A stretch of DNA of 52,407 nt. Origin: a virus. Shown one piece after another: positions 12,160-52,357 of the stretch. A program made the translations under genes and the position numbers. The notes beneath the pieces are model-generated. The model was given only the letters and a program-made list of their open reading frames with translations. It ran no database searches and was not told the DNA's origin. The DNA is taken from UHGV virus genome UHGV-0113213. The stretch is one strand, 5' to 3'. Position 1 is the first letter of the stretch. Each line of letters begins with the position of its first letter.

Positions 12160-12221
12160 TGTGATCTGTGTATCTATTTTATACAAAATGGCTTTACTTC
12201 AACGACTCCATTTTGTATAAG
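12160..12221. promoter_or_regulatory. back-to-back divergent promoters built on a perfect 13-bp inverted repeat
   Basis: TGTGATCTGTGT (12160-12171). TTATACAAAATGG (12179-12191), 16-nt spacer, CCATTTTGTATAA (12208-12220). Plus strand: -35 TTTACT (12193-12198), 17 nt, -10 TATAAG (12216-12221). Minus strand: -10 TATAAA (12178-12183) facing H. Confidence 0.6.
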
Positions 12222-12266
12222 GAAGCTAAAGGGAATGGTCAGTAAATCAAGTTAGCGTGGTGGGTT

Positions 12267-16374: not shown

Positions 16375-17427
16375 TTATTTGTGACCGTAAACAACACCGG
16401 AACGGCCCAGCATGTCGCAGGTGATTTGTAAGCCTTCGGCAGACATGATTTTGAAGTTGTAGTTATCGGTAGGCATGGTGCGCGGCAGAGGCACTACGCC
16501 AGTAGTCATACCAACCAGCGGGGTAATGACGTTGCGGCGGCGTTGATAGGCAATGAACTCGTTGCCTTTCAGTGCATAGGTCTGACGGATTTCTTTAACC
16601 GGAATGAACGGTTTAACGATATTCAGAACACTGCCTACGACAGTCCCGTTTGCAATGTGCGGCGCTGCCAGGTTAGCCATAATTTCAGGTGACACCCACA
16701 TGAGATCATACTGGTCAACGCGGTTGTTGCGGGCCATAACACCGAATGCACCAGTGGTGAAGAATTTGATGAGAGCATCGAATCCGTCAGTGGTGAGATC
16801 TTCGGAGGTCATGACTAGTTGCTGGGTATTGCGGTGATTTTTAATACCCTGGCCAGGTTTACCGTTGACGTTGATTTTTGCGTTACCGTTAAGGTAATAA
16901 TCAACGCGGGCCTTGTTGAATTTTTGCAGTTTCAGGCGCTGGCTATCCAGTGCAAGGTCAATACCAACAGTTTTCAGACCTTCGGAATGACGCCAGCTGA
17001 CACCGTAACCCGCTGCGAACATCGGGATCGGGTCGCCATCGCTGCCATATTCAGTGTGATCGAAGCCATGCGGGGCTTGACCATCGATACTAACGACAAC
17101 TTCATCGTTAATATCACCGGATACGCTGTACATTTTCTCGGTTTTACCGATTGGCAATACGGTTTGCACAGCCATCAAATCGTTTACGATTTCAATACCA
17201 GTCTCTTCGGTGCTCATTTCGATAATCTGGTTATCGACAGCTTTCCAGAACTCCTGATCGAAGCCGCCAACGGCATTACATGCCAGGATGTCAGCGGTCA
17301 TGTTTGCCATATTTGCGGCAATAAGAGCGCCGTCCTGATCATTGAACATGTTGCGCTGCGCCCAAAGGTGATCCCACTGGGCACGAATGCGGCTGTTGGT
17401 AGCAAGGTTGTGTTTATTAAACAACAT
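16375..17427 (-). CDS. major capsid protein (DUF2184-type coat protein)
   Basis: 350 aa. Position after the scaffold and decoration genes, with a strong terminator. Family assignment is recalled from the co-occurrence of DUF2213 scaffold and DUF2184 coat. Confidence 0.75.
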   Translation of the reverse strand: MLFNKHNLATNSRIRAQWDHLWAQRNMFNDQDGALIAANMANMTADILACNAVGGFDQEFWKAVDNQIIEMSTEETGIEIVNDLMAVQTVLPIGKTEKMYSVSGDINDEVVVSIDGQAPHGFDHTEYGSDGDPIPMFAAGYGVSWRHSEGLKTVGIDLALDSQRLKLQKFNKARVDYYLNGNAKINVNGKPGQGIKNHRNTQQLVMTSEDLTTDGFDALIKFFTTGAFGVMARNNRVDQYDLMWVSPEIMANLAAPHIANGTVVGSVLNIVKPFIPVKEIRQTYALKGNEFIAYQRRRNVITPLVGMTTGVVPLPRTMPTDNYNFKIMSAEGLQITCDMLGRSGVVYGHK

Positions 17428-26477: not shown

Positions 26478-26678
26478 TTACTTATTCCCCATTCGCGCGT
26501 CGTGTTCCTCTTGCGCTCGCTTGTTCTCCTGTGATTTGAAGTAATAGTTAACGGCAAATGTGCCTATGGTTGATAAGATACCCACAAAGACAGCAATATC
26601 ATTAATGGTTATCGCGCCGAAAAAAGCAGTTACGGCCCCGGTCACATACGCGCACGCCTCCCGTATTCTGTCGAACAT
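26478..26678 (-). CDS. S: holin (two-TM, pinholin-like)
   Basis: 66 aa, two hydrophobic helices, charged C-terminus ([15 protein letters not shown]). Directly precedes the SAR endolysin. Confidence 0.75.
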
Positions 26679-26694
26679 AGATTTTCCTCCAACA

Positions 26695-26722
26695 AAGCAA
26701 AAACCCGGCTCGTGGCCGGGTA
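26695..26722 (-). terminator. rho-independent terminator immediately upstream of the lysis cassette (tR'-like)
   Basis: CCCGGCC ACGA GCCGGG on the minus strand, followed by TTTTTGCTTTGTT, then GGAGG and the holin ATG. Confidence 0.65.
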
Positions 26723-28612: not shown

Positions 28613-28674
28613 TTTATAACAAAATGGCACTGCCGAAACAATGCCATTTCGTAAACCTTGTGATACAGATCACA
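28613..28674 (-). promoter_or_regulatory. internal promoter module with a near-consensus CRP site
   Basis: Minus strand: AAATGTGATCTGTATCACA (core 28659-28674, 14/16 to TGTGATCTAGATCACA), then 25 nt from the centre to -35 TTGTTT (28636-28641), a 17-nt spacer containing CCATTTTG, and -10 TATAAA (28613-28618). Confidence 0.6.
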
Positions 28675-30560: not shown

Positions 30561-30790
30561 TCCTCTGTCTCCCAGCGGTCTATGCTGATTAAAAAGTCCC
30601 GGATAGCGTGTCGCTCGTCGCGCGTCGGTTTACGCTTCCGGTAAATTTTGAAATCGAACCATTCTTTTTCTTGTTCGAAGTCCAGATCGTAAGCAAGCGC
30701 CTCGATATATCCGCAGTCGTGATACTGGTAAGCCACGCCAGCACGAACAAAAAAGCGGGTTTTATCCCGCTTGTGTTCATAGATACACAT
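30557..30790 (-). CDS. hypothetical protein
   Basis: 77 aa from the internal ATG at 30790 (GGGG SD), which avoids overlap with the upstream gene. The track ORF starts at 30835. Confidence 0.45.
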   Translation of the reverse strand: MCIYEHKRDKTRFFVRAGVAYQYHDCGYIEALAYDLDFEQEKEWFDFKIYRKRKPTRDERHAIRDFLISIDRWETEE

Positions 30791-30800
30791 ATTTGCCCCA

Positions 30801-31031
30801 CTATGCAGTTGTGTAACTATCAACCAGCTTTTCATCCTTCATTCTGGAAAGCTGCATGATATTCATCGTGTAGCCGTTGTCAGAGAAAAGCCACTCCGCA
30901 GCCTTGCGACGAAAAACAATATCATCATGGTTACGTGTCCATGTAGCTATCACAACGCGTTTCCCGTTAGTGGCGAACATAGATAACGCGTTATCAACTA
31001 CGTCGATAGCCTGCCAGATTTTTAGTTCCAT
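30801..31031 (-). CDS. hypothetical protein
   Basis: 76 aa, operon member. Confidence 0.5.
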   Translation of the reverse strand: MELKIWQAIDVVDNALSMFATNGKRVVIATWTRNHDDIVFRRKAAEWLFSDNGYTMNIMQLSRMKDEKLVDSYTTA

Positions 31032-32504: not shown

Positions 32505-32694
32505 TGTCGTTACTCCGTCCGTAAATATGGACAGGCTCAACTGGTACTGCTGGCAATTCGCCATCATTTAACTCGCTCGCCATGCCTAATATTAAACGCG
32601 CTTCAGCACCAGTGACTTTCTTGCACCATGCGTCGCCTGTTTTATCTTCAAATAAGATAACGGCAAACTGATCGTTTATTTCCAGCTTATCCAT
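32491..32694 (-). CDS. hypothetical small protein
   Basis: 67 aa. The start overlaps the Q stop. Contains ILFEDKTGDAWCK (the D-x-x-G-x-x-W motif). Confidence 0.5.
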   Translation of the reverse strand: MDKLEINDQFAVILFEDKTGDAWCKKVTGAEARLILGMASELNDGELPAVPVEPVHIYGRSNDNENN

Positions 32695-33422
32695 TATTCA
32701 CCCCGTGTCACTCGTTTGATTTCGCTTTCCGCGCGAGATTCTTCTTTGAATAGCTCCGCTATGGCGTCTTCATAGAAAACCCTGTATTTCTTCCACCATG
32801 TTGATCTGCTTACCGGGAAAACAAGCTGGTTAACAGCCTGCCGGACGAGATCTACAGGGAAACGCGAGTACCCGCGCCCGCCGCAGTGCTGGCACGTTTT
32901 GAATACTGGCATTTCCGCCGCTTCGCTGGCTGCTTTATCCGGTACTTCGCCACGCCCCTTGCACCTCTGGCAATGGTTTTTAACGTAGCCTTTGCCGTTG
33001 CACCGCGAGCAAACTGTCGATGTGTATTCACAATATGGATTCGGTAAAAGCCCGTTACCTCCGCACTTAGGGCAAACCTTTTCGGTAGCCGCACTTTGGC
33101 AGTAATCCCGAAACGCGAAAACGGCAACAAGAATAATAAGATCATTGCGTTGTTCTTCATTTAATTCCATCACGTATTCGTAATCTTTCGCCATAACCCT
33201 TAAACGCTCTGTAAGCAAAATTACGGCCCTGTGTTTTTCAGCTTGCGATAGCTCCATTTTCCCTAAAAAAGCACTATAGCCAAGCTCTACGCGCGATTGC
33301 GCCATACCAGCGGCGGTAAGCGCATCCGTCGTATTAAGTGCATCCGGGGATGTTCCCCGGCTTTCGTCTGATAATCGCGGTGATTTGGGAAAGTGGAATT
33401 TCAGAATGGATTCTAAATTCAT
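32694..33422 (-). CDS. Q: late-gene antiterminator Q-like protein with four DnaJ-type CxxCxGxG zinc knuckles
   Basis: 242 aa. CPKCGGNG, CSRCNGKG, CQRCKGRG, CQHCGGRG. The N-terminus MNLESILKFHFPKSP... resembles Q-family proteins of enterobacterial prophages as I recall them. Position after RusA. Confidence 0.65.
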   Translation of the reverse strand: MNLESILKFHFPKSPRLSDESRGTSPDALNTTDALTAAGMAQSRVELGYSAFLGKMELSQAEKHRAVILLTERLRVMAKDYEYVMELNEEQRNDLIILVAVFAFRDYCQSAATEKVCPKCGGNGLLPNPYCEYTSTVCSRCNGKGYVKNHCQRCKGRGEVPDKAASEAAEMPVFKTCQHCGGRGYSRFPVDLVRQAVNQLVFPVSRSTWWKKYRVFYEDAIAELFKEESRAESEIKRVTRGE

Positions 33423-34801: not shown

Positions 34802-34877
34802 AATGCTCTCTCCTTTTCAGGTGATTTCTACGCATTTCAGCGCTGCCGGATTTTTAAAGAGCATTTTGTTTGCTTGA

Positions 34878-34959
34878 AGTATACAAAATGGATACCCCCA
34901 AACAAGGCAAAAAGCGCCATTATGTGATCCGCATCACGCAATGATGCCATTTTGTAAAC
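34878..34959 (-). promoter_or_regulatory. internal promoter module with a CRP-like site
   Basis: Minus strand: GTTTACAAAATGG (34947-34959), CGTGATGCGGATCACA (34923-34938), 25 nt from the centre to -35 TTGTTT (34900-34905), a 16-nt spacer ending CCATTTTG, and -10 TATACT (34878-34883). Confidence 0.6.
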
Positions 34960-34960
34960 T

Positions 34961-35725
34961 TTAGTCCGGTAAAATGCGGTTAAGCGTAGTACGAGTGATG
35001 GCCCGGTCGTTAGCCAGGAATACAGCACGGGCAAAGCCGCGCGGCGTTAGTGAGCGGATCATCTTAGTGCGTTTCGACTCTCCTCCTAACTTCGCGTGCT
35101 GTTTGCTGTCTTCCCATTCATCCGGCATAGGTACAGGCCGGAATAGCGGCTGCTTAAATCCATTCCCGCACCAGATACAAGTTTTCTTCGTGTATGCGTC
35201 GCGGGCAGCTATGTATTCAGGGAAAGCAGGGTGTTTGTCGTCTTCAGGCAGGTAGCCACCGTAAGCGCACGGGTTGAAGATAAAATCAGGTTTGCGCCAT
35301 AACGTTGACAGCGCACCTACCGGATTTTCCACCATCCACGGGACGTGGTACATATCAGCAAGCGTTTCTACCAGTTTTGCGTTGTATACCGCCTTCTGCT
35401 GGAAGTAAGGTTCTTTTTTCCGCTTATCAGCAAACCAGCGAGCGCCGGACACCGCAAGATCGTCGCACGGAGGAAAGCCCAGGATAATGTCAGGATCTGG
35501 ATAAACAGACAATTCAGGGGAGAACATTACCAGGAAATGGCTGTCAATCCATACGTTGATATACTCAATGTTCGGATGAATGATTTTGACGCCTTCATAA
35601 TCGCCGTGATTAGCGCCATCATAGTTGAAGCAATAGCATTTATAACCAGCGTCGGCCCAATCTTTAACGGCGTATCCGCTGCCGTCGTACAGCGACCACA
35701 CCACCCAATTTCTAAGCCCACTCAT
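34961..35725 (-). CDS. DNA (cytosine-5) methyltransferase, orphan
   Basis: 254 aa. Motif I LYDGSG, motif IV GFPPCDDLAVSG, motif VI MVENP. No restriction partner seen. Confidence 0.7.
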   Translation of the reverse strand: MSGLRNWVVWSLYDGSGYAVKDWADAGYKCYCFNYDGANHGDYEGVKIIHPNIEYINVWIDSHFLVMFSPELSVYPDPDIILGFPPCDDLAVSGARWFADKRKKEPYFQQKAVYNAKLVETLADMYHVPWMVENPVGALSTLWRKPDFIFNPCAYGGYLPEDDKHPAFPEYIAARDAYTKKTCIWCGNGFKQPLFRPVPMPDEWEDSKQHAKLGGESKRTKMIRSLTPRGFARAVFLANDRAITRTTLNRILPD

Positions 35726-37555: not shown

Positions 37556-37745
37556 TTACCCCGCCTTTCACACGCTCTTTAATATCCCATACGTGAGGCT
37601 TGCATATTTCCTGATAATAGTGATCCGGCCTGCTGCCGAAATACCATTTGCCATCCATATAAAAATAAACGCCAGAATAATTTCCTGGCGCTGCCTTTGT
37701 TGCTGCTTCTGGAATTTTCCATTCCATGTAATGTTTAAATTTCAT
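37542..37745 (-). CDS. hypothetical protein
   Basis: 67 aa, operon member. Confidence 0.5.
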   Translation of the reverse strand: MKFKHYMEWKIPEAATKAAPGNYSGVYFYMDGKWYFGSRPDHYYQEICKPHVWDIKERVKGGVIEDV

Positions 37746-40929: not shown

Positions 40930-41573
40930 TAACCCATCTCCCCGTTAAGCTCTGCTACCCGGATGTCATAAACATCTTTTGCCTTGATTCGATGTTCCGA
41001 TCCTTCCGGTAGTAATTTCCAGCATTTGCCAAATATTTCACGCAGCTTGTTAGCGTCCTGCGCTTTCGCTGCTGCATCACAGAAACGTGCTAATACTTCA
41101 TCAGGATTTGGCGGCGCTTTCTGCTGCTGTGGTTGTTGTTTTGGTGGGTTTTTCTGCTGGCGAGGCTGCTGGCCTGTCTGCTTAGCGTATGCGTCAGTAT
41201 CAGGATCTCGCGCATCATCAATGCAGAATAAACCGTTCAAAGCGTATTTTCGCGCGTAACTTGATGTCGCACCTGTTAGCTGGCTTGCGTCCATTCCCTT
41301 CTTGCTTTCTTCTTCCCTGGCGTAAGCCGTTACCGCTATTTCGTCTTCACCGTCGCTTAGCGTCGCCGTAGCTTTCACATAATAGCGATTGCCGATCAGG
41401 ACAATTTCATCGCTTACAGTCAGCGTAATACTTTGAAGCAGTGGTTTAACCGCCTCTAAAATATCCTCCGCCGACCTGTAATTATATCCACCAAAATTAT
41501 TACGCTGATTTTTCGGCGCGTTCAGCGTTTGCTGAATCGTCCATAGCTTTTTATGTAACTCTGTTTTCACCAT
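40929..41573 (-). CDS. erf: Erf-family single-strand annealing recombinase
   Basis: 214 aa. Long stretches match my recollection of P22 Erf (LNAPKNQ.N.FG.Y.YRS.EDILE.VKPLL, SDEIVLIG.RYYVKATAT..DGE, KKGMDA.Q.TGATSSYARKY.LNGLF.IDDA.D.D). Confidence 0.9.
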   Translation of the reverse strand: MVKTELHKKLWTIQQTLNAPKNQRNNFGGYNYRSAEDILEAVKPLLQSITLTVSDEIVLIGNRYYVKATATLSDGEDEIAVTAYAREEESKKGMDASQLTGATSSYARKYALNGLFCIDDARDPDTDAYAKQTGQQPRQQKNPPKQQPQQQKAPPNPDEVLARFCDAAAKAQDANKLREIFGKCWKLLPEGSEHRIKAKDVYDIRVAELNGEMG

Positions 41574-41689
41574 TTAATCTCCCGTGCTGTTAACACTATG
41601 TATAAGGCTTTATTCGCGGCGCTCCACATTTCGGCATCGTGAAGCATTTCCGCTACTGCCAGTTTGAATTGAAGCGCCTGAATAACCAT
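41567..41689 (-). CDS. hypothetical small protein upstream of erf
   Basis: 40 aa: MVIQALQFKLAVAEMLHDAEMWSAANKALYIVLTAREIKW. GGAG SD. The stop overlaps the erf start. Confidence 0.45.
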   Translation of the reverse strand: MVIQALQFKLAVAEMLHDAEMWSAANKALYIVLTAREIKW

Positions 41690-41719
41690 AATGTCATCTC
41701 CGGATGTTTACATTTTGTA

Positions 41720-42010
41720 TTAATGGTAGCGGACTTTATCCAGGGGTTTTTCCCCTAAATGGCGTGGTTGCGTTGCGTGGTAGTAGCTGCCGCTTTCATT
41801 TTCCGTATACCATTTTACTGATCCTTTGCGACGTTCTTTAATGCTATTTGGTTTGCATCTTTCCTCGTTTGCAAATCGAATAGCTTTATCCACATTGTCT
41901 GTTTTATTGATTGCAGGTGATGATTTTCTTTCGTTTTCTCTTTTTATCCTTCTGCGTTCCCTGGCATTCATTTTGCTATCACATTTACCATATATAATTG
42001 TAACGCTCAT
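41720..42010 (-). CDS. N: N-like transcription antiterminator (arginine-rich motif)
   Basis: 96 aa, first gene after PL. Residues 14-29, MNARERRRIKRENERK, resemble the ARMs of lambda N (MDAQTRRRERRAEKQ) and P22 N. boxA/boxB-like elements are present (see 43322-43354). Confidence 0.6.
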   Translation of the reverse strand: MSVTIIYGKCDSKMNARERRRIKRENERKSSPAINKTDNVDKAIRFANEERCKPNSIKERRKGSVKWYTENESGSYYHATQPRHLGEKPLDKVRYH

Positions 42011-42358
42011 AATCTGATCTCCGTATATCCTTGATGATACTTAATAAAAAATCATCTTCGTTAATTGCCGCACTTCCAGCGGCTGACCAGATTGTTAATG
42101 AGCGGCTTAACATCTTTCAACTAATCCCGCAATCATCGCCGTTCCCGGCGTGACCTTGCTCACTCCAAGCAAGCTGACTCGTCGCCTTGCGTGCGGTTTC
42201 GTGGGGGATGTAACGCTTTAAACACCCCATGCGCCTTGTTATCAGTGCCGCTTTCGGTCCCCCATCGGGGAGTTACTCCACGGTTGACAAGGTGTTAAGC
42301 CTGATTTTTAAAGTGCCAGGAAGTTGCTTTTGTTACCTGCGCCCTTCCTTTGACTCGC

Positions 42359-42401
42359 AATATACGCCCCGTAAAACATCGAGTCAATCCATTTTGTATA
42401 C
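42359..42401 (-). promoter_or_regulatory. PL-like early leftward promoter with an abutting phage motif
   Basis: Minus strand: GTATACAAAATGG (42389-42401), then -35 TTGACT (42382-42387), a 17-nt spacer and -10 TATATT (42359-42364). Confidence 0.65.
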
Positions 42402-42477
42402 TTTTTTAAAATATTTTATATGCCATTGATATTTAAATAATAAATAACGTTTTCTGTTTACGTTTTGGTGTTTTCCA

Positions 42478-42504
42478 GGCAAAGAAAAGCCGCCATTCGG
42501 CGGC
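42478..42504 (-). terminator. rho-independent terminator after the repressor gene
   Basis: GCCGCC(42489-42494) ATTC GGCGGC(42499-42504), followed on the minus strand by TTTTCTTT. Confidence 0.75.
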
Positions 42505-42510
42505 TAATGT

Positions 42511-43158
42511 TTATGGCAGGTTTACGATCTTCGCATCAACCACCACGCCTATAATTTTTGATTCTGGATTCATAGGGATTGGCGGATACAGCGGATTGAG
42601 CGAACGTAAAAGCCTTTGACCTCCATCAATAATCAACTGTTTAAACGTCGGTATCTGCCCTTCCTCAAGCTGGGCTATAACCAGTTTGCCGTCAATAGCT
42701 GGCGCGTGCGGGTCCACAAGTATCATCGTCCCCGCCGGGATGCTCAACCCCTGCGGCGCGTTCATTGATTCACCTTTGGCAACCAGCCAGTAACTGTCAT
42801 CTGAACAAATAACGCTAGTCGTAACGTGTCGTAATGCTGAACGCCTTGCGTCATCCATATTGTTTACTGTGTCCTTCCAGTCAATAACCGGGTAACTACC
42901 TAAATCACGCGGCGGCACGGCCTGAAGTGTATTAGAAACAGAATCATCAATGACCATGCCATCATGTGTAACAGTAAACTGCCGACGACCAAGCTCGCGC
43001 ATAATCCGCGCAATATCTTCAAGATTTGGCTCTCGGCGACCGTTCAGCCAGTGTGACAGGCCGCCTTTAGTTATCCCCATACGATCCGCGAGTGAATCCT
43101 GGCTCATGCCCTGCGCCCGCATGAGCTGCTTTGCTAAGTCATACCATTTTGTTTTCAT
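42511..43158 (-). CDS. cI: CI-type prophage repressor (HTH + S24 LexA-like peptidase)
   Basis: 215 aa. N-terminal HTH (SQDSLADRMGITKGGLSHWLNGRREP). C-terminal autocleavage domain with GESM (Ser) and a downstream Lys (FKQL). Confidence 0.88.
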   Translation of the reverse strand: MKTKWYDLAKQLMRAQGMSQDSLADRMGITKGGLSHWLNGRREPNLEDIARIMRELGRRQFTVTHDGMVIDDSVSNTLQAVPPRDLGSYPVIDWKDTVNNMDDARRSALRHVTTSVICSDDSYWLVAKGESMNAPQGLSIPAGTMILVDPHAPAIDGKLVIAQLEEGQIPTFKQLIIDGGQRLLRSLNPLYPPIPMNPESKIIGVVVDAKIVNLP

Positions 43159-43217
43159 GTCGCTACCCTATAACCTCAAAAAGTTTGATGCAAGTCACAA
43201 AACGTGTATTTTAAGCC

Positions 43218-43245
43218 TTGATCTTAAAATTCCATTTTGTAAACT
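43218..43245 (+). promoter_or_regulatory. PR-like early rightward promoter overlapped by the phage motif
   Basis: -35 TTGATC (43218-43223), a 16-nt spacer ending CCATTTTG, -10 TAAACT (43240-43245). An alternative is TTGATG (43185)-16-TATTTT (43207). Exact motif CCATTTTGTAAAC at 43232-43244. Confidence 0.5.
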
Positions 43246-43321
43246 TGCAGACAAGGTAAGGCCATACTTGCAAAGACGCAAGGAAAAAGATAACGGAAGG
43301 CACAAAAAGGCACTTACCTTA

Positions 43322-43354
43322 TGCTCTTTAAAAATCCGGTGTCGCTGCGAAGCG
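43322..43354 (+). promoter_or_regulatory. nutR-like site: boxA plus a boxB hairpin
   Basis: TGCTCTTTAAAAA (43322-43334) against the boxA consensus (C/T)GCTCTTTAACAA. 8 nt later, CGCT-GCGA-AGCG (43343-43354): a 4-bp stem with a GNRA loop. Confidence 0.55.
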
Positions 43355-43463
43355 AAAAACAAATATCACGCAACGGCGGGATCTGTTGAGCGGTCAGTCA
43401 CTGCTATCTAATGCTAATGGGATGCCCGCCCGCGCGTTCACTCTAACCATAGGAGAAAATGCG

Positions 43464-43730
43464 ATGAGTATAAACATGATTAGTAAAGCATGGAACGTAA
43501 AACTTAATAGCCCGATTCAAAAACTTGTCTTAATGGCTCTGGCTGAAAAGGCAGATAACAAAGGACGGGTACATGATGCATCACGCAAAGAAGTAGCCGC
43601 AATGTGTGAACTTCCTGTTCATACGGTACATGATGCCTTCGCCGCGTTAATGGATAAAGGATTTGTTTGTCGTCTTGATGCATTCAGTGATGTCTATGTA
43701 GTGATGTTGCCGGGGGGGGATGATCTATGA
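43464..43730 (+). CDS. winged-helix/HTH protein (HTH_36-like), first gene of the rightward operon
   Basis: 88 aa from the ATG at 43464 (AGGAG SD). AWNVKLNSPIQKLVLMALAEKADNKGRV...S..EVAAMCELPVHTVHDAFAAL..KGFV. Confidence 0.6.
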   Translation: MSINMISKAWNVKLNSPIQKLVLMALAEKADNKGRVHDASRKEVAAMCELPVHTVHDAFAALMDKGFVCRLDAFSDVYVVMLPGGDDL

Positions 43731-44773
43731 AGTGGTTTAAGCATGACAGCGATGCGAACCGCGATGAAAAACTTCAAAACGTTTTGTTAGATTATGGCCT
43801 GGAAGGGTACGGGCTTTATTGGTATTGCCTCGAACTAATAACTTATGACGTAGATCAGCACAATCTGAATTTTGACCTACGACATGACGCGAGAATCATT
43901 GCGCGAAACGTCGGATCGACTGAAAAACGTATAGAAGAAATGATGAAATACTTCATCGAAATTGGTTTGTTTGAATGTTCTCAAGGCCACATAACTTGTT
44001 TAAAGTTATTGAAAAGGCTTGATCAATCAATGACTTCTAAAAGCGCGTACAGGGCCGCCATAAACACAGCTAAGGAGCAATTAAAATTAGAAAAGTTAAT
44101 CAATCCAACACAAAAAGGTCATGATAGGGTCATGACCGGGTCAGGAAAGGGTCATGAATTAGAAGTAGAAGAAGAAAGAGAAAAAGATATATACACTTCG
44201 TGTATTGTCGAAAATGAACAAAAAATGTTCAATCGGGATGGCGTAAACGAAGCGGCATTGCGTTGTCTTTCCTTCTACAACGACAAGGCAGGATGCAAAT
44301 GTCGTGATGCGAAGCCATTCATAGAACTACTGACAGAAACAAAAACACGTAAAGCATATACTGAGGAAGAAATCACATTAGTAATCGAGTGGGCTTTAAC
44401 GCAATGGCGTAGCCGTGGTGGAACACCTAAGCCTATCAACATTTGCCGGGTAACTAAATTTGATGGGTATCTGGCTGATGCTGAACAATGGCGCAAACTG
44501 TCAGCCACTGCAAACGCTGCCGATGTGGTGGAAGCATTTAACAGCACGTTTGACGGTCTGTTACCACATGCCGAACTGGATCGGGATCTTGAACGTAAGA
44601 TCTATGCGTTCACTGACTACCTGAAAGACAAAAGCATCACTGGCTTTATTGCTTACTTTGAGGCGTTCAAAAACACGGCTTCAGATTTTTACTTCGGCAA
44701 TGGCTTTACTGCGACACTGGATTTTCTACTTAAACCAAAAACGCTACGTGATACACGATGTGGCGCTCTTTGA
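43727..44773 (+). CDS. replisome organiser / replication initiator (DUF4373-like N-terminus)
   Basis: 348 aa. MKWFKHDSDANRDEKL..LL..YGLEGYGLYWYCLELI. Contains an internal iteron array. Precedes the helicase module. Confidence 0.65.
   Translation: MKWFKHDSDANRDEKLQNVLLDYGLEGYGLYWYCLELITYDVDQHNLNFDLRHDARIIARNVGSTEKRIEEMMKYFIEIGLFECSQGHITCLKLLKRLDQSMTSKSAYRAAINTAKEQLKLEKLINPTQKGHDRVMTGSGKGHELEVEEEREKDIYTSCIVENEQKMFNRDGVNEAALRCLSFYNDKAGCKCRDAKPFIELLTETKTRKAYTEEEITLVIEWALTQWRSRGGTPKPINICRVTKFDGYLADAEQWRKLSATANAADVVEAFNSTFDGLLPHAELDRDLERKIYAFTDYLKDKSITGFIAYFEAFKNTASDFYFGNGFTATLDFLLKPKTLRDTRCGAL
44117..44160 (+). repeat. candidate replication origin iterons inside the initiator gene
   Basis: Four direct 11-bp units, GGTCATGATAG GGTCATGACCG GGTCAGGAAAG GGTCATGAATT (one helical turn apart), followed by a purine/AT-rich tract at 44161-44200. 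Confidence 0.6.
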
Positions 44774-45147: not shown

Positions 45148-46071
45148 ATGCGCAAGTTAACACATGATGAACAGGTTGCGGCTATCGCTAAGGTTAATCA
45201 TGATGTCGAAGTGCTTGGGGAAATTGTCAATAACAGGACAAAAGTATCCTGCCGCTGCAAGGTTTGCAGTCACGAATGGTCGGCTAGACCTTACAATCTT
45301 AAAAGCGGTTACGGCTGCCCGAAATGCGCCGGAAAGATGAAATTATCACACGAAGAACAGGTTGCCGCTATCGAGAAGGTTAATTCTGATGTCGAAGTGA
45401 TTGGCGAAATAATAAACGGCGATACAAAAGCATTATGCCGCTGCAAAGTTTGTAATCACGAATGGTCGGCTAAACCTAACAACCTAAAAAACGGGCGCGG
45501 CTGCCCGAAATGTAAAGGTTTAAAAATCGCACAAAGACGAACATTATCACACGAAGAACATTTATCCGCTATCACTAAGGTAAATCATGATATTGAAGTA
45601 TTGGGAGAAATAATAAACGATAGGACAAAAGTATTATGTCGATGCAAGGTTTGTGATCATAAGTGGTCGCCTAGACCTTATGCTATTAAAAGCGGGCAAG
45701 GCTGCCCGAAATGTGCGAAACACGGTTTTTTGTCACACAATTTCGGCAAACTTTACATCATGGTTGATGATCCTGAAGTGCCTACACAAATGAAAATCGG
45801 CGTAAGCGTTAATGAGAACAAGCGAAGAAATCGGGTATTAAAAAGCGCACATAAATCAGGCGTTAGAATCCCTGATTTATGTGTCGTGAAAACGTTAGAA
45901 GGTCCAACCGAAAATATCCATGAATTAGAAAGCACGATGCATAAATATTTCAGCAATTATAAAATTAACTTTCCTGTAAAATTTGATGGCAGTAATGAGT
46001 TTTTCTATTACAGGCCGGAAGTATTCGACATGGTAGAAGAAGCATATAAAGAGATTGTTTGCTGTCAATGA
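45148..46071 (+). CDS. triple zinc-ribbon repeat protein with a C-terminal T5orf172 (GIY-YIG-like) domain
   Basis: 307 aa. Three repeats of about 65 aa (LSHEEQVAAI.KVN.DVEV.GEI.N..TK..CRCKVC.HEWSA.P.NLK.G.GCPKC.G). The C-terminus KLYIMVDDP...KIGVS.N...R...L........P.L.....EGP.ENIHELESTMHKYF...K......GSNEFFY is T5orf172-like (recalled). Confidence 0.6.
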   Translation: MRKLTHDEQVAAIAKVNHDVEVLGEIVNNRTKVSCRCKVCSHEWSARPYNLKSGYGCPKCAGKMKLSHEEQVAAIEKVNSDVEVIGEIINGDTKALCRCKVCNHEWSAKPNNLKNGRGCPKCKGLKIAQRRTLSHEEHLSAITKVNHDIEVLGEIINDRTKVLCRCKVCDHKWSPRPYAIKSGQGCPKCAKHGFLSHNFGKLYIMVDDPEVPTQMKIGVSVNENKRRNRVLKSAHKSGVRIPDLCVVKTLEGPTENIHELESTMHKYFSNYKINFPVKFDGSNEFFYYRPEVFDMVEEAYKEIVCCQ

Positions 46072-46104: not shown

Positions 46105-47223
46105 ATGTCACAAAGAAAGATAAGCGATGAGCAATTGATCGCTGAATATAACAACGGTTTAACGTACAAGCAGATCGCTGAAAAATATGGCATGTCAAAA
46201 CGCAACGTCGAGCGCCTGGGCGCAAAGCTGGCGAAACGCGGTTTAATATCCACGCGTCGCGCGCCGGGTTTTGGCGTCAATGGCGAGTCATTGCTAGTTG
46301 ATAAGGATGGCAATGTGATTATGCGCTGGATTAAAACAGCCCGTGATCGCGATGAAATGGAAAGGCTAATGCAAGCGGCTTGCGATGCTTTCACGGAAGA
46401 CATGCCACGCGCTGAGGCTGTGCCAGTGCCGGAAATTGATTTCCAAAAAAGCCTGGCTCTTTATCCGGTATTCGATCTGCATATCGGTGCGCTTGCGCAT
46501 AAAGCTGAATGCGGTGAGAGCTACGACACCGGGATCGCCGAACGTGTGTTAAATGACTTCTTCGACTACGCGGTGGGCGCTGCGCCAATGTCTGAAAAGG
46601 CTGTTTTGTTGTTAGGAGGTGATATTCTTCACACTGACGGCCTGTTACCAGTGACGCCATCAAGCAATCACGTCCTGGATTGCGATTCACGCTACGCAAA
46701 ACTGGTTTACGTGGCGATCCGGTCGGTCCGGCGTGCGGTCGGGAAGATGTTACTAAATCATAAGTATGTCGAGATCCAGACATTATCCGGTAATCACGAC
46801 CAATCAGGGATGATCTGGCTACGTGCGGCGCTGGCGGCTTTTTACGAAGATGAACCGCGCGTAACTGTTGATGTGTCCCCTGCTATCGTTCACCACACAC
46901 AGTACGGCAAAACATTCCTTGCTTACCACCACGGACACACCATCAAAAAACCAGAAAATTTGTTGTCTGCCTGCGTCTCTGACTGGCGGGAGGATTTCGG
47001 CAAGTCGTCGGCGGTTTACGCTCATTGCGGACACTGGCATCACCAACGGCTGATTGAATCATCGTTAGGCGTTGTTGAGTATCACGGCACGTTAGCTGGC
47101 AAAGACGCTTATTCAACAAATGGCGGCTGGCGGTCGCGTCGGCTGGCTGCGGTAATAATTTACAGTCCTGATCATGGGGAAATCGGGCGCTTTGTTTATT
47201 ACCCTGAATATTCCATTTTGTAA
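46105..47223 (+). CDS. HTH + calcineurin-like metallophosphoesterase protein
   Basis: 372 aa. N-terminal HTH (LTYKQIAEKYGMSKRNVERL). Phosphoesterase motifs DLHIG, GGDILH, SGNHD, HHGH, GHWHH. Confidence 0.65.
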   Translation: MSQRKISDEQLIAEYNNGLTYKQIAEKYGMSKRNVERLGAKLAKRGLISTRRAPGFGVNGESLLVDKDGNVIMRWIKTARDRDEMERLMQAACDAFTEDMPRAEAVPVPEIDFQKSLALYPVFDLHIGALAHKAECGESYDTGIAERVLNDFFDYAVGAAPMSEKAVLLLGGDILHTDGLLPVTPSSNHVLDCDSRYAKLVYVAIRSVRRAVGKMLLNHKYVEIQTLSGNHDQSGMIWLRAALAAFYEDEPRVTVDVSPAIVHHTQYGKTFLAYHHGHTIKKPENLLSACVSDWREDFGKSSAVYAHCGHWHHQRLIESSLGVVEYHGTLAGKDAYSTNGGWRSRRLAAVIIYSPDHGEIGRFVYYPEYSIL

Positions 47224-47241
47224 ACCGGAGGCGATACCATA

Positions 47242-50973: not shown

Positions 50974-51203
50974 TGGATAAAACAGGGACAATCCTTCTTA
51001 GTCGCCCTGCCATCTGCCGGATGCTTGGTGGAATTAGCAGGGGAACATTTTATTTATGGCGTAAAAAATGGGAACGGAACGGAACTCCGTTCCCCGACCC
51101 GGTTGATGTACTTGGTAACGGTCGTGGCGTTATGTACCGCTATCAGGACGTAATGCAGTTCTTTGATCAGATTGGTTTAACGTCAGCCAAAGATAATACA
51201 TAA
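50973..51203 (+). CDS. AlpA-family HTH protein (likely excisionase / regulator)
   Basis: 76 aa. LLSRPAICRMLGGISRGTFYLWRKK....FP.PV resembles the AlpA/Xis pattern. Converges on and overlaps the integrase 3' end. Confidence 0.65.
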   Translation: MDKTGTILLSRPAICRMLGGISRGTFYLWRKKWERNGTPFPDPVDVLGNGRGVMYRYQDVMQFFDQIGLTSAKDNT

Positions 51204-52357
51204 TCAGCAAACTTATTTAGCGCCTCCTTTTGTTCGTCAAGATAATCGTATTTATCGTACACCGCCAGTATTCCCCTTAATGAATGGCCTAAGATCTTTT
51301 CCGCAATATGTACCGGAACACCTATAGCTGAAAGGTGTGTCCGGCACGTCCTGCGGAGGTCGTGACAGGACCATGATTTACCGCCCATCCTTTTACGCAC
51401 GAAGATTGCGGCTACTTTTATCACCGATGCGTTTACTGGCCTGTTACCGCCGTTAATCACTGGCGGGAACACGTAATCATACTCATGGGAGGATAACACC
51501 TCCCTGAGCATTTTTATCGACAAATCTGATAATCCCCGCCTGATTTCACTTCTTGTCTTCGCCACCGCTGCCGGGACGGTCCACACCCCGTTATCCAGGT
51601 CGAGGTGCTCCCTTCTCATTTTCTGCAACTCCCCCACCCTGCACCCGGTGAGCAATAATAGCTTTAATGCTATCTTGTTCTGACGGTAGATCTGCGAATC
51701 ATCCACCGTTCGCCAGAAATGGCCTATTTCATCGCATGATAAATAACGCTCGCCAACCGCATAATTTTCGCCAACGTCAATAACCCTGATATTGTTTATC
51801 GCTGTACTGGTCATTAGCCCGCGCCTGATAGCGCTGTTCACAACAATCTTCATTCGCTTAAGTATCAGTCCCGCCGTAACCGCGTGGCCCGCCGCAGTGA
51901 TCTCGCCGAATATGTCCATCCATTGTTTCGTACTGACATCATCGGCAATATACTCACCGAATTTATCGACAACATGGCGCTTAAGCGCGCTCCTGACGTC
52001 ATTATATGCAACCAGCTTAATAACGTTCGGCAGGGATAAATAGTCACTCACAATGGCGCTTATTGTTAATTTGCCACGCTCAATACTTATCGCTTGCTTT
52101 ACTGAAACGGTTGGATTCTTCCCCTTCGCTAATAGTTCTTTGTATTCTGCCACCGCGTGGCGTGCATCTTTCAACGTCATGCTGCCGTAATCGCCGATCT
52201 TCATCCTTACAGGCTTACCGTTGAACCTGTACCGGAACTGGAAAATAATTTTCCCTTTCGGGCTTATCCTGGCAGACAAGCCATCGCGATCTGCTATCTC
52301 GTTCGGGCCGTCATATGGCTTGTTTGCTATTGCGCGTAATTTCGTATCCGTCAGCAT
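51167..52357 (-). CDS. int: tyrosine integrase (P4-like, with an N-terminal arm-binding domain)
   Basis: 396 aa. MLTDTKLRA......G...I.D..GL.ARISPKG...F.FRYRF.GK. Catalytic-domain residues R...HDLRRT...GH...Y. Confidence 0.9.
   Translation of the reverse strand: MLTDTKLRAIANKPYDGPNEIADRDGLSARISPKGKIIFQFRYRFNGKPVRMKIGDYGSMTLKDARHAVAEYKELLAKGKNPTVSVKQAISIERGKLTISAIVSDYLSLPNVIKLVAYNDVRSALKRHVVDKFGEYIADDVSTKQWMDIFGEITAAGHAVTAGLILKRMKIVVNSAIRRGLMTSTAINNIRVIDVGENYAVGERYLSCDEIGHFWRTVDDSQIYRQNKIALKLLLLTGCRVGELQKMRREHLDLDNGVWTVPAAVAKTRSEIRRGLSDLSIKMLREVLSSHEYDYVFPPVINGGNRPVNASVIKVAAIFVRKRMGGKSWSCHDLRRTCRTHLSAIGVPVHIAEKILGHSLRGILAVYDKYDYLDEQKEALNKFADYVLSLADVKPI

Follow-up and report, generated by a model that had tools for sequence, protein, structure and literature searches.

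Probable mEp021-type antitermination by a Gp17 ortholog and three nut sites in an Escherichia coli prophage

The virus genome UHGV-0113213, a stretch of 52,407 nucleotides (nt) that we refer to as the window, carries a CI-type repressor gene and a small gene with an arginine-rich motif (ARM) at positions 41720-43354, and a first-pass annotation had proposed that N-type antitermination operates there. Which antitermination system does this locus encode, where are its RNA sites, and how are the genes under its control arranged? This study indicates, with a probability of about 0.9, that the region represents the lambda-N-like antitermination system of the mEp021 type, comprising Gp17 and three nut sites, which is already known. 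The central finding thus repeats published work on mEp021 and the mEpimmI phages and adds an instance rather than new biology. The evidence obtained here consists of orthology, the positions and the enrichment of the motifs, covariation in boxB and the layout of the genes. The activity of Gp17, its dependence on the ARM and on Nus factors, and the existence of three sites are taken from the literature, and we infer which upstream site corresponds to the published nutR1, where the promoters lie and in which order events occur.

With regard to the identity of the window, megablast matches of the interval 41500-43800 were limited to mEp515, mEp010, mEp021, mEp044, mEp554, mEp013 and MagusPhagus, at 90-93% identity, and DNA identity across the region to mEp515, mEp010 and mEp021 was 89.8-93.2%. 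The half of the window that extends from N to int (27500-52407) is syntenic with six of six mEp phages (coverage 75-82%, identity about 86%); a synteny comparison had been proposed beforehand, and it showed this half to be collinear with all of them. The N-cI region was found in 35 of 5,426 complete E. coli genomes (about 0.6%), in a single chromosomal copy each. Given these matches, the synteny and the chromosomal copies, the window is, judged by its sequence, an E. coli prophage of the published mEpimmI (mEp021-like) group, and 41720-43354 is its immunity and early-control region. According to Negrete-Mendez et al. 2025 (PMC11893012), the mEpimmI phages depend on Nus factors, are not lambdoid and show a high degree of synteny, and they share one repressor and one immunity. 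In addition to the synteny, the window has in common with them the CI-type repressor of this single immunity group, a Gp17 ortholog that keeps the ARM arginines R17, R19, R20 and R24, and three nut sites at the positions indicated by the Fig. 7 legend of PMC11893012 and the mEp021 sequence.

In mEp021, early antitermination by Gp17 at nutR1, nutR2 and nutL is described in section 3.5 and the Fig. 7 legend of PMC11893012, where Valencia-Toxqui 2023 (Arch Virol 168:92) is cited for Gp17 as the early antiterminator. As PMC11893012 relates with reference to that work, Gp17- and Nus-dependent terminator readthrough was reported for mEp021 alone. Of the published sites, nutR1 precedes gp17, nutR2 follows the cytosine methyltransferase gene, and nutL is situated between gp14 and the repressor gene (PMC11893012). 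As the mEp021 map is oriented opposite to the window, the published "R" corresponds to the minus strand here. The window shares with mEp021 the orthologous antiterminator, the three nut sites, the repressor, the terminators TERM_1, 3, 4, 5 and 6, and the gene order, which is the arrangement annotated in mEp021. The differences within this system are merely allelic, the first gene of the replication arm encoding 88 amino acids (aa) in the window and 81 aa in mEp021, and the variable region from Q to lysis is unlike. The components are as follows.

41720..42010, minus strand: Gp17-type N-like antiterminator of 96 aa, ARM at residues 14-29 (by translation and homology)
42511..43158, minus strand: CI-type repressor with HTH_3 and Peptidase_S24 domains, called 'cI repressor' in mEp phages
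42359..42387, minus strand: PL-like promoter, TTGACT, 17-nt spacer, TATATT (10 of 12 matches; hexamers conserved, spacer variable)
43218..43245, plus strand: candidate PR, TTGATC, 16-nt spacer, TAAACT (inferred position, below the scan threshold)
43322..43334, plus strand: boxA of the PR-side nut (published nutL), TGCTCTTTAAAAA
43343..43354, plus strand: boxB of nutL, predicted hairpin CGCU-GCGA-AGCG with stem CGCU/AGCG and a GCGA tetraloop (loop GUGA or GCAA in relatives)
42092..42104, minus strand: boxA of the N-proximal nut, CGCTCATTAACAA, most likely the published nutR1
42067..42083, minus strand: boxB of the N-proximal nut, GCCGC-UGGAAGU-GCGGC, predicted in a 303-nt fold (GCUAC-UGAAAU-GUAGC or GCAC-UGAAAU-GUGC in relatives)
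34851..34863, minus strand: boxA of the third nut (published nutR2), TGCTCTTTAAAAA, conserved in 37 distinct relative sequences
34830..34843, minus strand: boxB of nutR2, GCGC-UGAAAU-GCGU (outer G.U pair replaced by A-U or C-G in relatives)

The translation of 41720..42010 on the minus strand begins with MSVTIIYGKCDSK-MNARERRRIKRENERK..., its N-terminus reading MSVTIIYGKCDSKMNARERRRIKRENERK..., and places the ARM at residues 14-29, in agreement with what had been noticed earlier for the first PL gene. In tblastn comparisons, this 96-aa open reading frame (ORF) is 100% identical to the 'anti-termination protein N-like' of MagusPhagus and 92.7% identical to mEp021 gp17. It also matches phrog_271, 'anti-termination protein N-like', over its full length (E value 1.3e-13). 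An alignment of 16 homologs shows no variation at N15, A16, R17, R20 and R24 and a conservation of at least 90% at R19 and R21, which fits the conservation of R17, R19, R20 and R24 published for Gp17 (PMC11893012). The family is compact, comprising 31 clusters at 60-98% identity. In a scan of a collection with one genome per species, no Gp17 relative was found beyond the E. coli phages and prophages considered here. Its small size, its ARM near the N-terminus and the place of its gene in the PL operon, next after a nut site, are features of the lambda-type N class. The earlier proposal of an N-type system therefore receives support from orthology, as mEp021 Gp17 is reported in PMC11893012 to be an experimentally characterized N-like antiterminator. 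At 42020-42060 (minus strand), after boxB and ahead of the ribosome-binding site of the N-like gene, there is a conserved hairpin, GAUGAU-N12-AUCAUC with a U-run in its loop, which may affect N translation.

For the analysis of the nut sites, 45 related loci were drawn from IMG/VR by Gp17 alignment and their leaders were compared. Sequences within one mismatch of GCNCTTTAAAAATC occur three times in the window against 0.18 expected, a number reached by none of 100 shuffles; the third copy, at 34862..34849 on the minus strand, had been overlooked, and with it the entire third nut site (34863..34830). In nearly all 45 relatives, the boxA and boxB elements of nutL and nutR2 keep their relative positions. 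The rightward boxA and the CGCT-GCGA-AGCG boxB had been placed correctly from the start: 43322-43354 on the plus strand is, on the evidence of its conservation, a nut site, the one called nutL in the mEp021 papers. Its sequence GCTCTTTAAAAA is kept in 26 of 26 distinct aligned relatives, two of which have an altered loop, GUGA in L033, which is still a GNRA tetraloop, and GCAA in L042 (CGCUGCAAUGCG), where the closing U-A pair has become U.U. Searches of Rfam with the whole window at gathering thresholds and with 41900-43500 at E values up to 10 gave nothing credible for the nut sites or for the leader insert described below.

The hairpins were aligned separately, because MAFFT misplaced the boxB with the 7-nt loop in the full nut alignment; 12 distinct hairpins were pooled over the nut sites and scored as a 5-bp helix. 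Standard pairs occupy 85% of the cells, and four of the five pairs are altered on both sides. The covariation score was 0.448, compared with 0.160 for shuffled alignments, and none of 500 shuffles reached 0.448; pairing dropped to 19-57% once the partners were slid. Every variant can form a GNRA tetraloop (GCGA, GUGA, GCAA or GAAA) on a U-A or U.U closing pair, and the N-proximal loop of the window would become GGAA with one U bulged. The sites thus have the organization of lambda-type nut sites, with a GCUCUUUA-type boxA, a boxB within about 10 nt, a GNRA-like loop (GCGA, GAAA, GGAA(G)) and covariation of the stem.

As in lambda, the first PL gene of the window lies on the cI strand and encodes a small basic protein whose ARM is N-terminal, and the late genes are likewise under Q control. 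In its nut sites, as in those of lambda, boxA is followed after about 8 nt by a short hairpin with a GNRA-type loop, and Nus dependence is common to both according to the literature. In contrast to lambda, the protein lacks detectable sequence similarity to N, there are three nut sites instead of two, no cro lies before the PR-side nut, which itself comes ahead of the first gene, and the late genes lie downstream of N rather than of the replication genes. The lambda boxB loop is a GAAAA or GAAGA pentaloop, whereas the window has true tetraloops (GCGA, GAAA) that are closed by a U-A or U.U pair. The boxA of the window is nearer to the rrn consensus than that of lambda, and it resembles the consensus of the rrn/lambda type that binds NusB/NusE. 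The P22 gp24 protein resembles the window protein in register at its N-terminus (MTVITYGK...NAKTRR against MSVTIIYGK...NARERR), the similarity covering the first 20 residues, and a central D.V.KAI..A motif also aligns. The P22 nutL (CGCTCTTTAAC, 9 nt, GCGCUGACAAAGCGC) has the same architecture and a similar boxA-to-boxB spacing, and its stem GCGCU/AGCGC nearly equals CGCU/AGCG of the window. P22 differs in its GACAA pentaloop, in the unrelated C-terminal halves of the proteins and in its lambdoid gene order.

The position of the N-side nut site required closer consideration, as two boxA-like sequences precede the N-like gene. The one noticed originally belongs to the following pair of elements.

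42300..42316, minus strand: distal boxA-like element, GCACTTTAAAAATCAGG, with no boxB after it
42104..42301, minus strand: predicted structured RNA domain of about 198 nt, closing helix GGCUUAACA/UGUUAAGCC, multi-branch fold

In each relative examined, the sequence immediately upstream of the gp17 ribosome-binding site consists of a boxA, 7-8 nt and a hairpin. In ten relatives with short leaders (L022, L030, L035-L039, L043-L045), the proximal boxA reads TGCTCTTTAACAA or a one-base variant thereof and directly follows the PL-like promoter, the distal element and the next ~215 nt being absent. The distal element accordingly lies at the 5' edge of a segment of about 215 nt that is missing from 10 of the 45 relatives, and mEp013, mEp044 and mEp554 exhibit the same leader gap, matching in two pieces at 74-75% coverage. 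No stable hairpin follows 42316..42300 in the predicted fold (centroid unstructured, z +1.19). As the proximal boxA and boxB are retained in each relative examined, and the distal element has no hairpin and is absent from ten relatives, the functional N-side nut is most likely 42104..42067 on the minus strand, about 200 bases from the site first proposed. This proximal site most likely equals the published nutR1, and 42316..42300 is probably a boxA-like remnant or decoy. The earlier observation of a leftward boxA-like motif thus holds for its presence at 42316..42300, its range of 42300-42317 being one base too long; as a nut site it probably fails, lacking a boxB and being polymorphic for the indel.

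It is nevertheless conceivable that the distal element is the functional N-side boxA, either alone or as half of a split nut with the domain of about 198 nt looped out. The element is identical at 15 of 17 positions to the other two boxA regions (GCTCTTTAAAAATCCGG), it is nearly invariant where relatives possess it, and the predicted closing helix of the insert would set it directly beside the proximal boxA. We consider this distinctly unlikely, since the plaque-forming isolates mEp013, mEp044 and mEp554 lack the distal element yet retain gp17 and the proximal site, as do the short-leader relatives, and the element is thus dispensable. A T-to-A change within the GCUCUUUA core, besides the missing hairpin, also speaks against it. 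In mEp021, the nutR2 boxA is 7946 bp from the proximal boxA and 8160 bp from the distal element; nutR2 reportedly lies more than 7.9 kbp downstream of nutR1, and this spacing was counted in favor of the proximal site.

Several points weigh against the assignment of the region to an mEp021-type N/nut system with the proximal site as nutR1. By folding energy, the short boxB hairpins cannot be told apart from shuffles (z -0.1 to -0.6), which leaves covariation and recurrence as their support, and the covariation events that are independent are few, because paralogous sites and closely related phages were pooled. One position of the proximal boxA CGCTCATTAACAA differs from the consensus (T to A), and the proximal loop UGGAAGU is no plain tetraloop, a GGAA tetraloop requiring a bulged U. 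The spacing argument relies on a reported distance of more than 7.9 kbp and not on the coordinates of nutR1. No homology of the 96-aa protein to lambda N was detected in Pfam, in NCBIfam or by a sequence match to N chains in the PDB, and the similarity to P22 gp24 is weak (E value 0.017; hhalign probability 35%). Finally, all functional statements for this prophage are carried over by analogy from mEp021.

With regard to the insert in the N leader, it is predicted to fold as a closed multi-branch domain with a 9-bp closing helix (z -2.2). One internal helix has three compensatory pairs in L046 and L047, plus five U-A to U.G changes. The insert is flanked by the two boxA-like sequences, is present in 35 of the 45 relatives, and contains a 37-codon ORF that is annotated gp16 in mEp021 (about 42230..42117 in the window). 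A 24-mer from the insert was found solely in mEpimmI contigs in the IMG/VR scan (35 of 45), and a distant-mode search of a phage database matched just four mEp-type phages. This optional insert between the putative decoy boxA and the proximal nut might tune N expression or nut assembly; the role of an optional structured RNA in the N leader is not covered in the literature examined. The structured insert is possibly new, as are two features described in the following paragraphs, the succession of terminator, promoter-like element and nut around the third site and a dispersed motif of 15 nt that is conserved.

The third nut site lies just downstream of the methyltransferase gene (34961..35725, phrog_757) and upstream of ninF-ninG-rusA-Q. 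It is preceded by two further elements.

34909..34947, minus strand: terminator hairpin with U-run after the cytosine methyltransferase gene, mapping to mEp021 TERM_4; arms conserved, loop variable
34878..34905, minus strand: promoter-like element TTGTTT, 16-nt spacer, TATACT, between the TERM_4 homolog and the third nut (hypothetical)

The site lies about 45 nt downstream of the U-run of the TERM_4 homolog, with TTGTT, a variable spacer and CCATTTTGTATACT in between. The conservation pattern of this block looks promoter-like, and the succession of terminator, promoter-like block and nut hints at a separate start for the ninF-ninG-rusA-Q unit in addition to readthrough from PL. Why a Q module should possess its own nut directly after a terminator and a promoter-like block is likewise not covered in the literature examined.

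The motif CCATTTTGTAWACTT, of 15 nt, occurs in 11 copies with at most two mismatches, compared with 0.34 expected. Exact copies are located at 34877-34891 (minus), 34947-34961 (plus), 42389-42403 (plus) and 43232-43246 (plus), that is, at both flanks of the TERM_4 homolog and in the operator regions OL and OR, and weaker copies at 2835, 7605, 9198, 9589, 28644, 38280 and 47213. The listed copies at or above 34877 are intergenic, and the copy at 2835 is within the ORF of tail-fibre protein J. Some copies form inverted pairs, such as TATACAAAATGG-N16-CCATTTTGTATA at 12177-12222, and six are positionally retained in divergent relatives. The motif could serve as an operator for the repressor, as the -10 block of promoters or as a signal in RNA. 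One copy is directly followed, at 28659-28674 (plus), by a perfect CRP-type palindrome, TGTGATACAGATCACA, and a related sequence, GATCACAT, which contains a Dam site, recurs by the copies at 12177, 34877 and 38280. Convincing lambda-style 17-bp palindromic operators were not seen by eye in OL or OR; CTTGCA/TGCAAG palindromes are present on the OR side only.

These observations bear on the possibility that the third nut heads an early unit of its own, started from a promoter between 34947..34909 and boxA and perhaps controlled by the repressor through the 15-nt motif. Among 37 distinct relatives, the terminator, TTGTT, variable spacer, CCATTTTGTATACT and a boxA at about +9 form a conserved series of blocks, in which the hairpin loop and the first part of the spacer vary. 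In addition, an exact 15-mer overlaps the -10 of the sole conserved PR candidate and another abuts the -35 of PL, and two copies flank the TERM_4-homolog terminator. On the other hand, the -35 of the putative third promoter matches at three of six positions and falls below the promoter-scan threshold, and other copies of the motif are at implausible places for a promoter, the GGAGG Shine-Dalgarno sequence of dnaB following directly after the copy at 47213-47227. Moreover, nutR2 is reportedly reached by readthrough from nutR1, which counts against an independent unit. We therefore regard a separate third unit as possible but tentative.

The gene layout was confirmed by Pfam and PHROGs, with the exception of the strand of int. 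The minus strand carries the CI repressor, Gp17, ERF, SSB, Dam, cytosine methyltransferase, NinG, RusA and Q, followed by endolysin, small and large terminase, portal, head/capsid, tape measure and J. The plus strand carries the 88-aa winged-helix protein, a replication initiator (Lin1244_N/O-like), a zinc-ribbon/T5orf172 protein, an exonuclease-like protein, DnaB, a MarR-like protein, NinB and an Xis-like helix-turn-helix (HTH) protein. This layout agrees with two earlier statements, namely that Q, lysis and morphogenesis genes follow N, erf and ssb on the cI strand, and that the nin genes are split, NinB being on the plus arm and NinG and RusA on the minus strand. The description as a mirror-image lambdoid layout was loose, as the modules are reassorted, not mirrored, and the group was published as non-lambdoid (PMC11893012). 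Downstream of N, the PL strand holds the genes for recombination, the nin genes other than ninB, Q and the genes for lysis, head and tail; replication genes, ninB and xis come after PR, and the lambdoid order int-xis-recombination-N-cI-cro-replication-nin-Q-lysis-head-tail is not kept. The late regulator and the remaining terminators are as follows.

32694..33422, minus strand: Q-type late antiterminator (PF03589, E value 1.7e-31; phrog_127, E value 3.7e-79)
42488..42505, minus strand: TERM_1/t1 homolog, intrinsic terminator downstream of cI
37668..37692, minus strand: TERM_3 homolog
26697..26720, minus strand: TERM_5/t5 homolog, just upstream of the lysis genes
About 25300: TERM_6 homolog

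Q scores 108.7 bits against PF03589, with a gathering cut-off of 26.7. The TERM_3 homolog differs from its mEp021 counterpart (17171-17191) by a compensatory C-G to A-U change in the stem (GCGCCCGG...CGGGCG versus GCGCCAGG...CTGGCG), which supports a real hairpin. A TERM_2 homolog was not found in the window. The TERM_5 homolog lies directly before the holin-like start at 26678 and is likely the target of Q; according to the Fig. 7 legend of PMC11893012, t5 has been demonstrated by experiment. A late promoter PR' was sought in the window and not located. A promoter-like sequence at 30883..30856 with a hairpin at 30772..30753 was considered as PR'/tR' and rejected, as the hairpin is inside a membrane-protein ORF and the TERM_5 homolog is at 26720..26697.

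By analogy with mEp021, the circuit could operate as follows. The CI-type repressor gene would be flanked by the PL-like promoter (42387..42359) and a rightward promoter, for which the candidate PR offers the single conserved -35/-10 arrangement in that direction from cI to nut. The N-terminal ARM of Gp17 would bind boxB hairpins presenting GNRA-type loops, the adjacent boxA would recruit NusB/NusE (S10), and NusA and NusG would join, rendering RNA polymerase resistant to terminators. This could take place at 43322-43354 (plus) in the leader of the replication arm, at 42104..42067 (minus) before the N-like gene, and at 34863..34830 (minus) after a terminator. The modified polymerase would then pass the TERM_3 and TERM_4 homologs and reach Q, which would open the late operon past the terminator at 26720..26697.

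Is there a Cro in this circuit? No plausible Cro-like ORF was found between cI (42511..43158, minus strand) and 43464: on the plus strand, this interval contains nothing but an ORF of 22 codons across the nut and a long one antisense to cI. This inspection bears out the first-pass annotation, and the absence of a Cro at the canonical place appears real at the level of sequence. Cro, operators and promoters of the mEpimmI phages are not discussed in the 2025 paper (PMC11893012), and the lysis-lysogeny switch of a CI/N/Q phage without a Cro at the canonical place is not covered in the literature examined. The gene that occupies the first position after PR is the following.

43464..43730, plus strand: first PR-side gene, 88 aa, stand-alone winged-helix protein of the replication-initiator type (phrog_4617, E value 2.2e-22)

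This product could in principle be a functional Cro that shuts down PRM and the early promoters. It is small, is the first gene product of the rightward operon and has a winged-helix fold by homology, its mEp021 counterpart is annotated HTH/MarR-like, and no other candidate exists at the canonical place. By homology, however, it belongs with the origin-binding domain at the N-terminus of replication initiators (phrog_4617, O-like), of which it matches the N-terminal ~70-89 residues only. Moreover, the first gene after the nut takes three forms among the relatives: one of several divergent alleles of 81-88 aa, a winged-helix domain fused in a 332-aa protein (L029, L044), or no such gene at all in L047, where the next initiator gene comes first. 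The alleles are strongly divergent, as between the 81-aa mEp021 type and the 88-aa type of the window, although repressor and immunity are common to the group. The repressor, the OR sequence blocks and the nut remain near-constant across relatives despite this variation, which is consistent with a mosaic replication module and not with a Cro that has to co-evolve with its operators. With its initiator homology, allelic diversity, fusion in two relatives and absence in one, the 88-aa protein is unlikely to be a second repressor of the Cro type.

Beyond the preferred mEp021-type reading, one may picture an early circuit that departs from that of lambda not in gene order alone, a circuit without Cro in which three separately started, nut-headed units (PL, PR and the third) would be governed by CCATTTTGTAWACTT as operator, with the leader RNA as an optional part; we offer this as a speculative and rather doubtful scheme.

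Some observations on the PR arm remain to be mentioned. The replication module that follows the PR-side nut (43464-44773, plus) is mosaic among relatives. Further downstream, a 307-aa protein (45148-46071, plus) combines three treble-clef zinc-ribbon/CapR repeats with a T5orf172 (GIY-YIG-like) domain. Of the claim that xis and int terminate the PR arm, the part concerning xis stands, as the Xis-like gene is on the plus strand; int (51167..52357) is encoded on the minus strand and converges with xis, and is therefore not part of the PR transcript. The 3' end of the Xis-like gene overlaps that of int by 37 bases, at 51167-51203.

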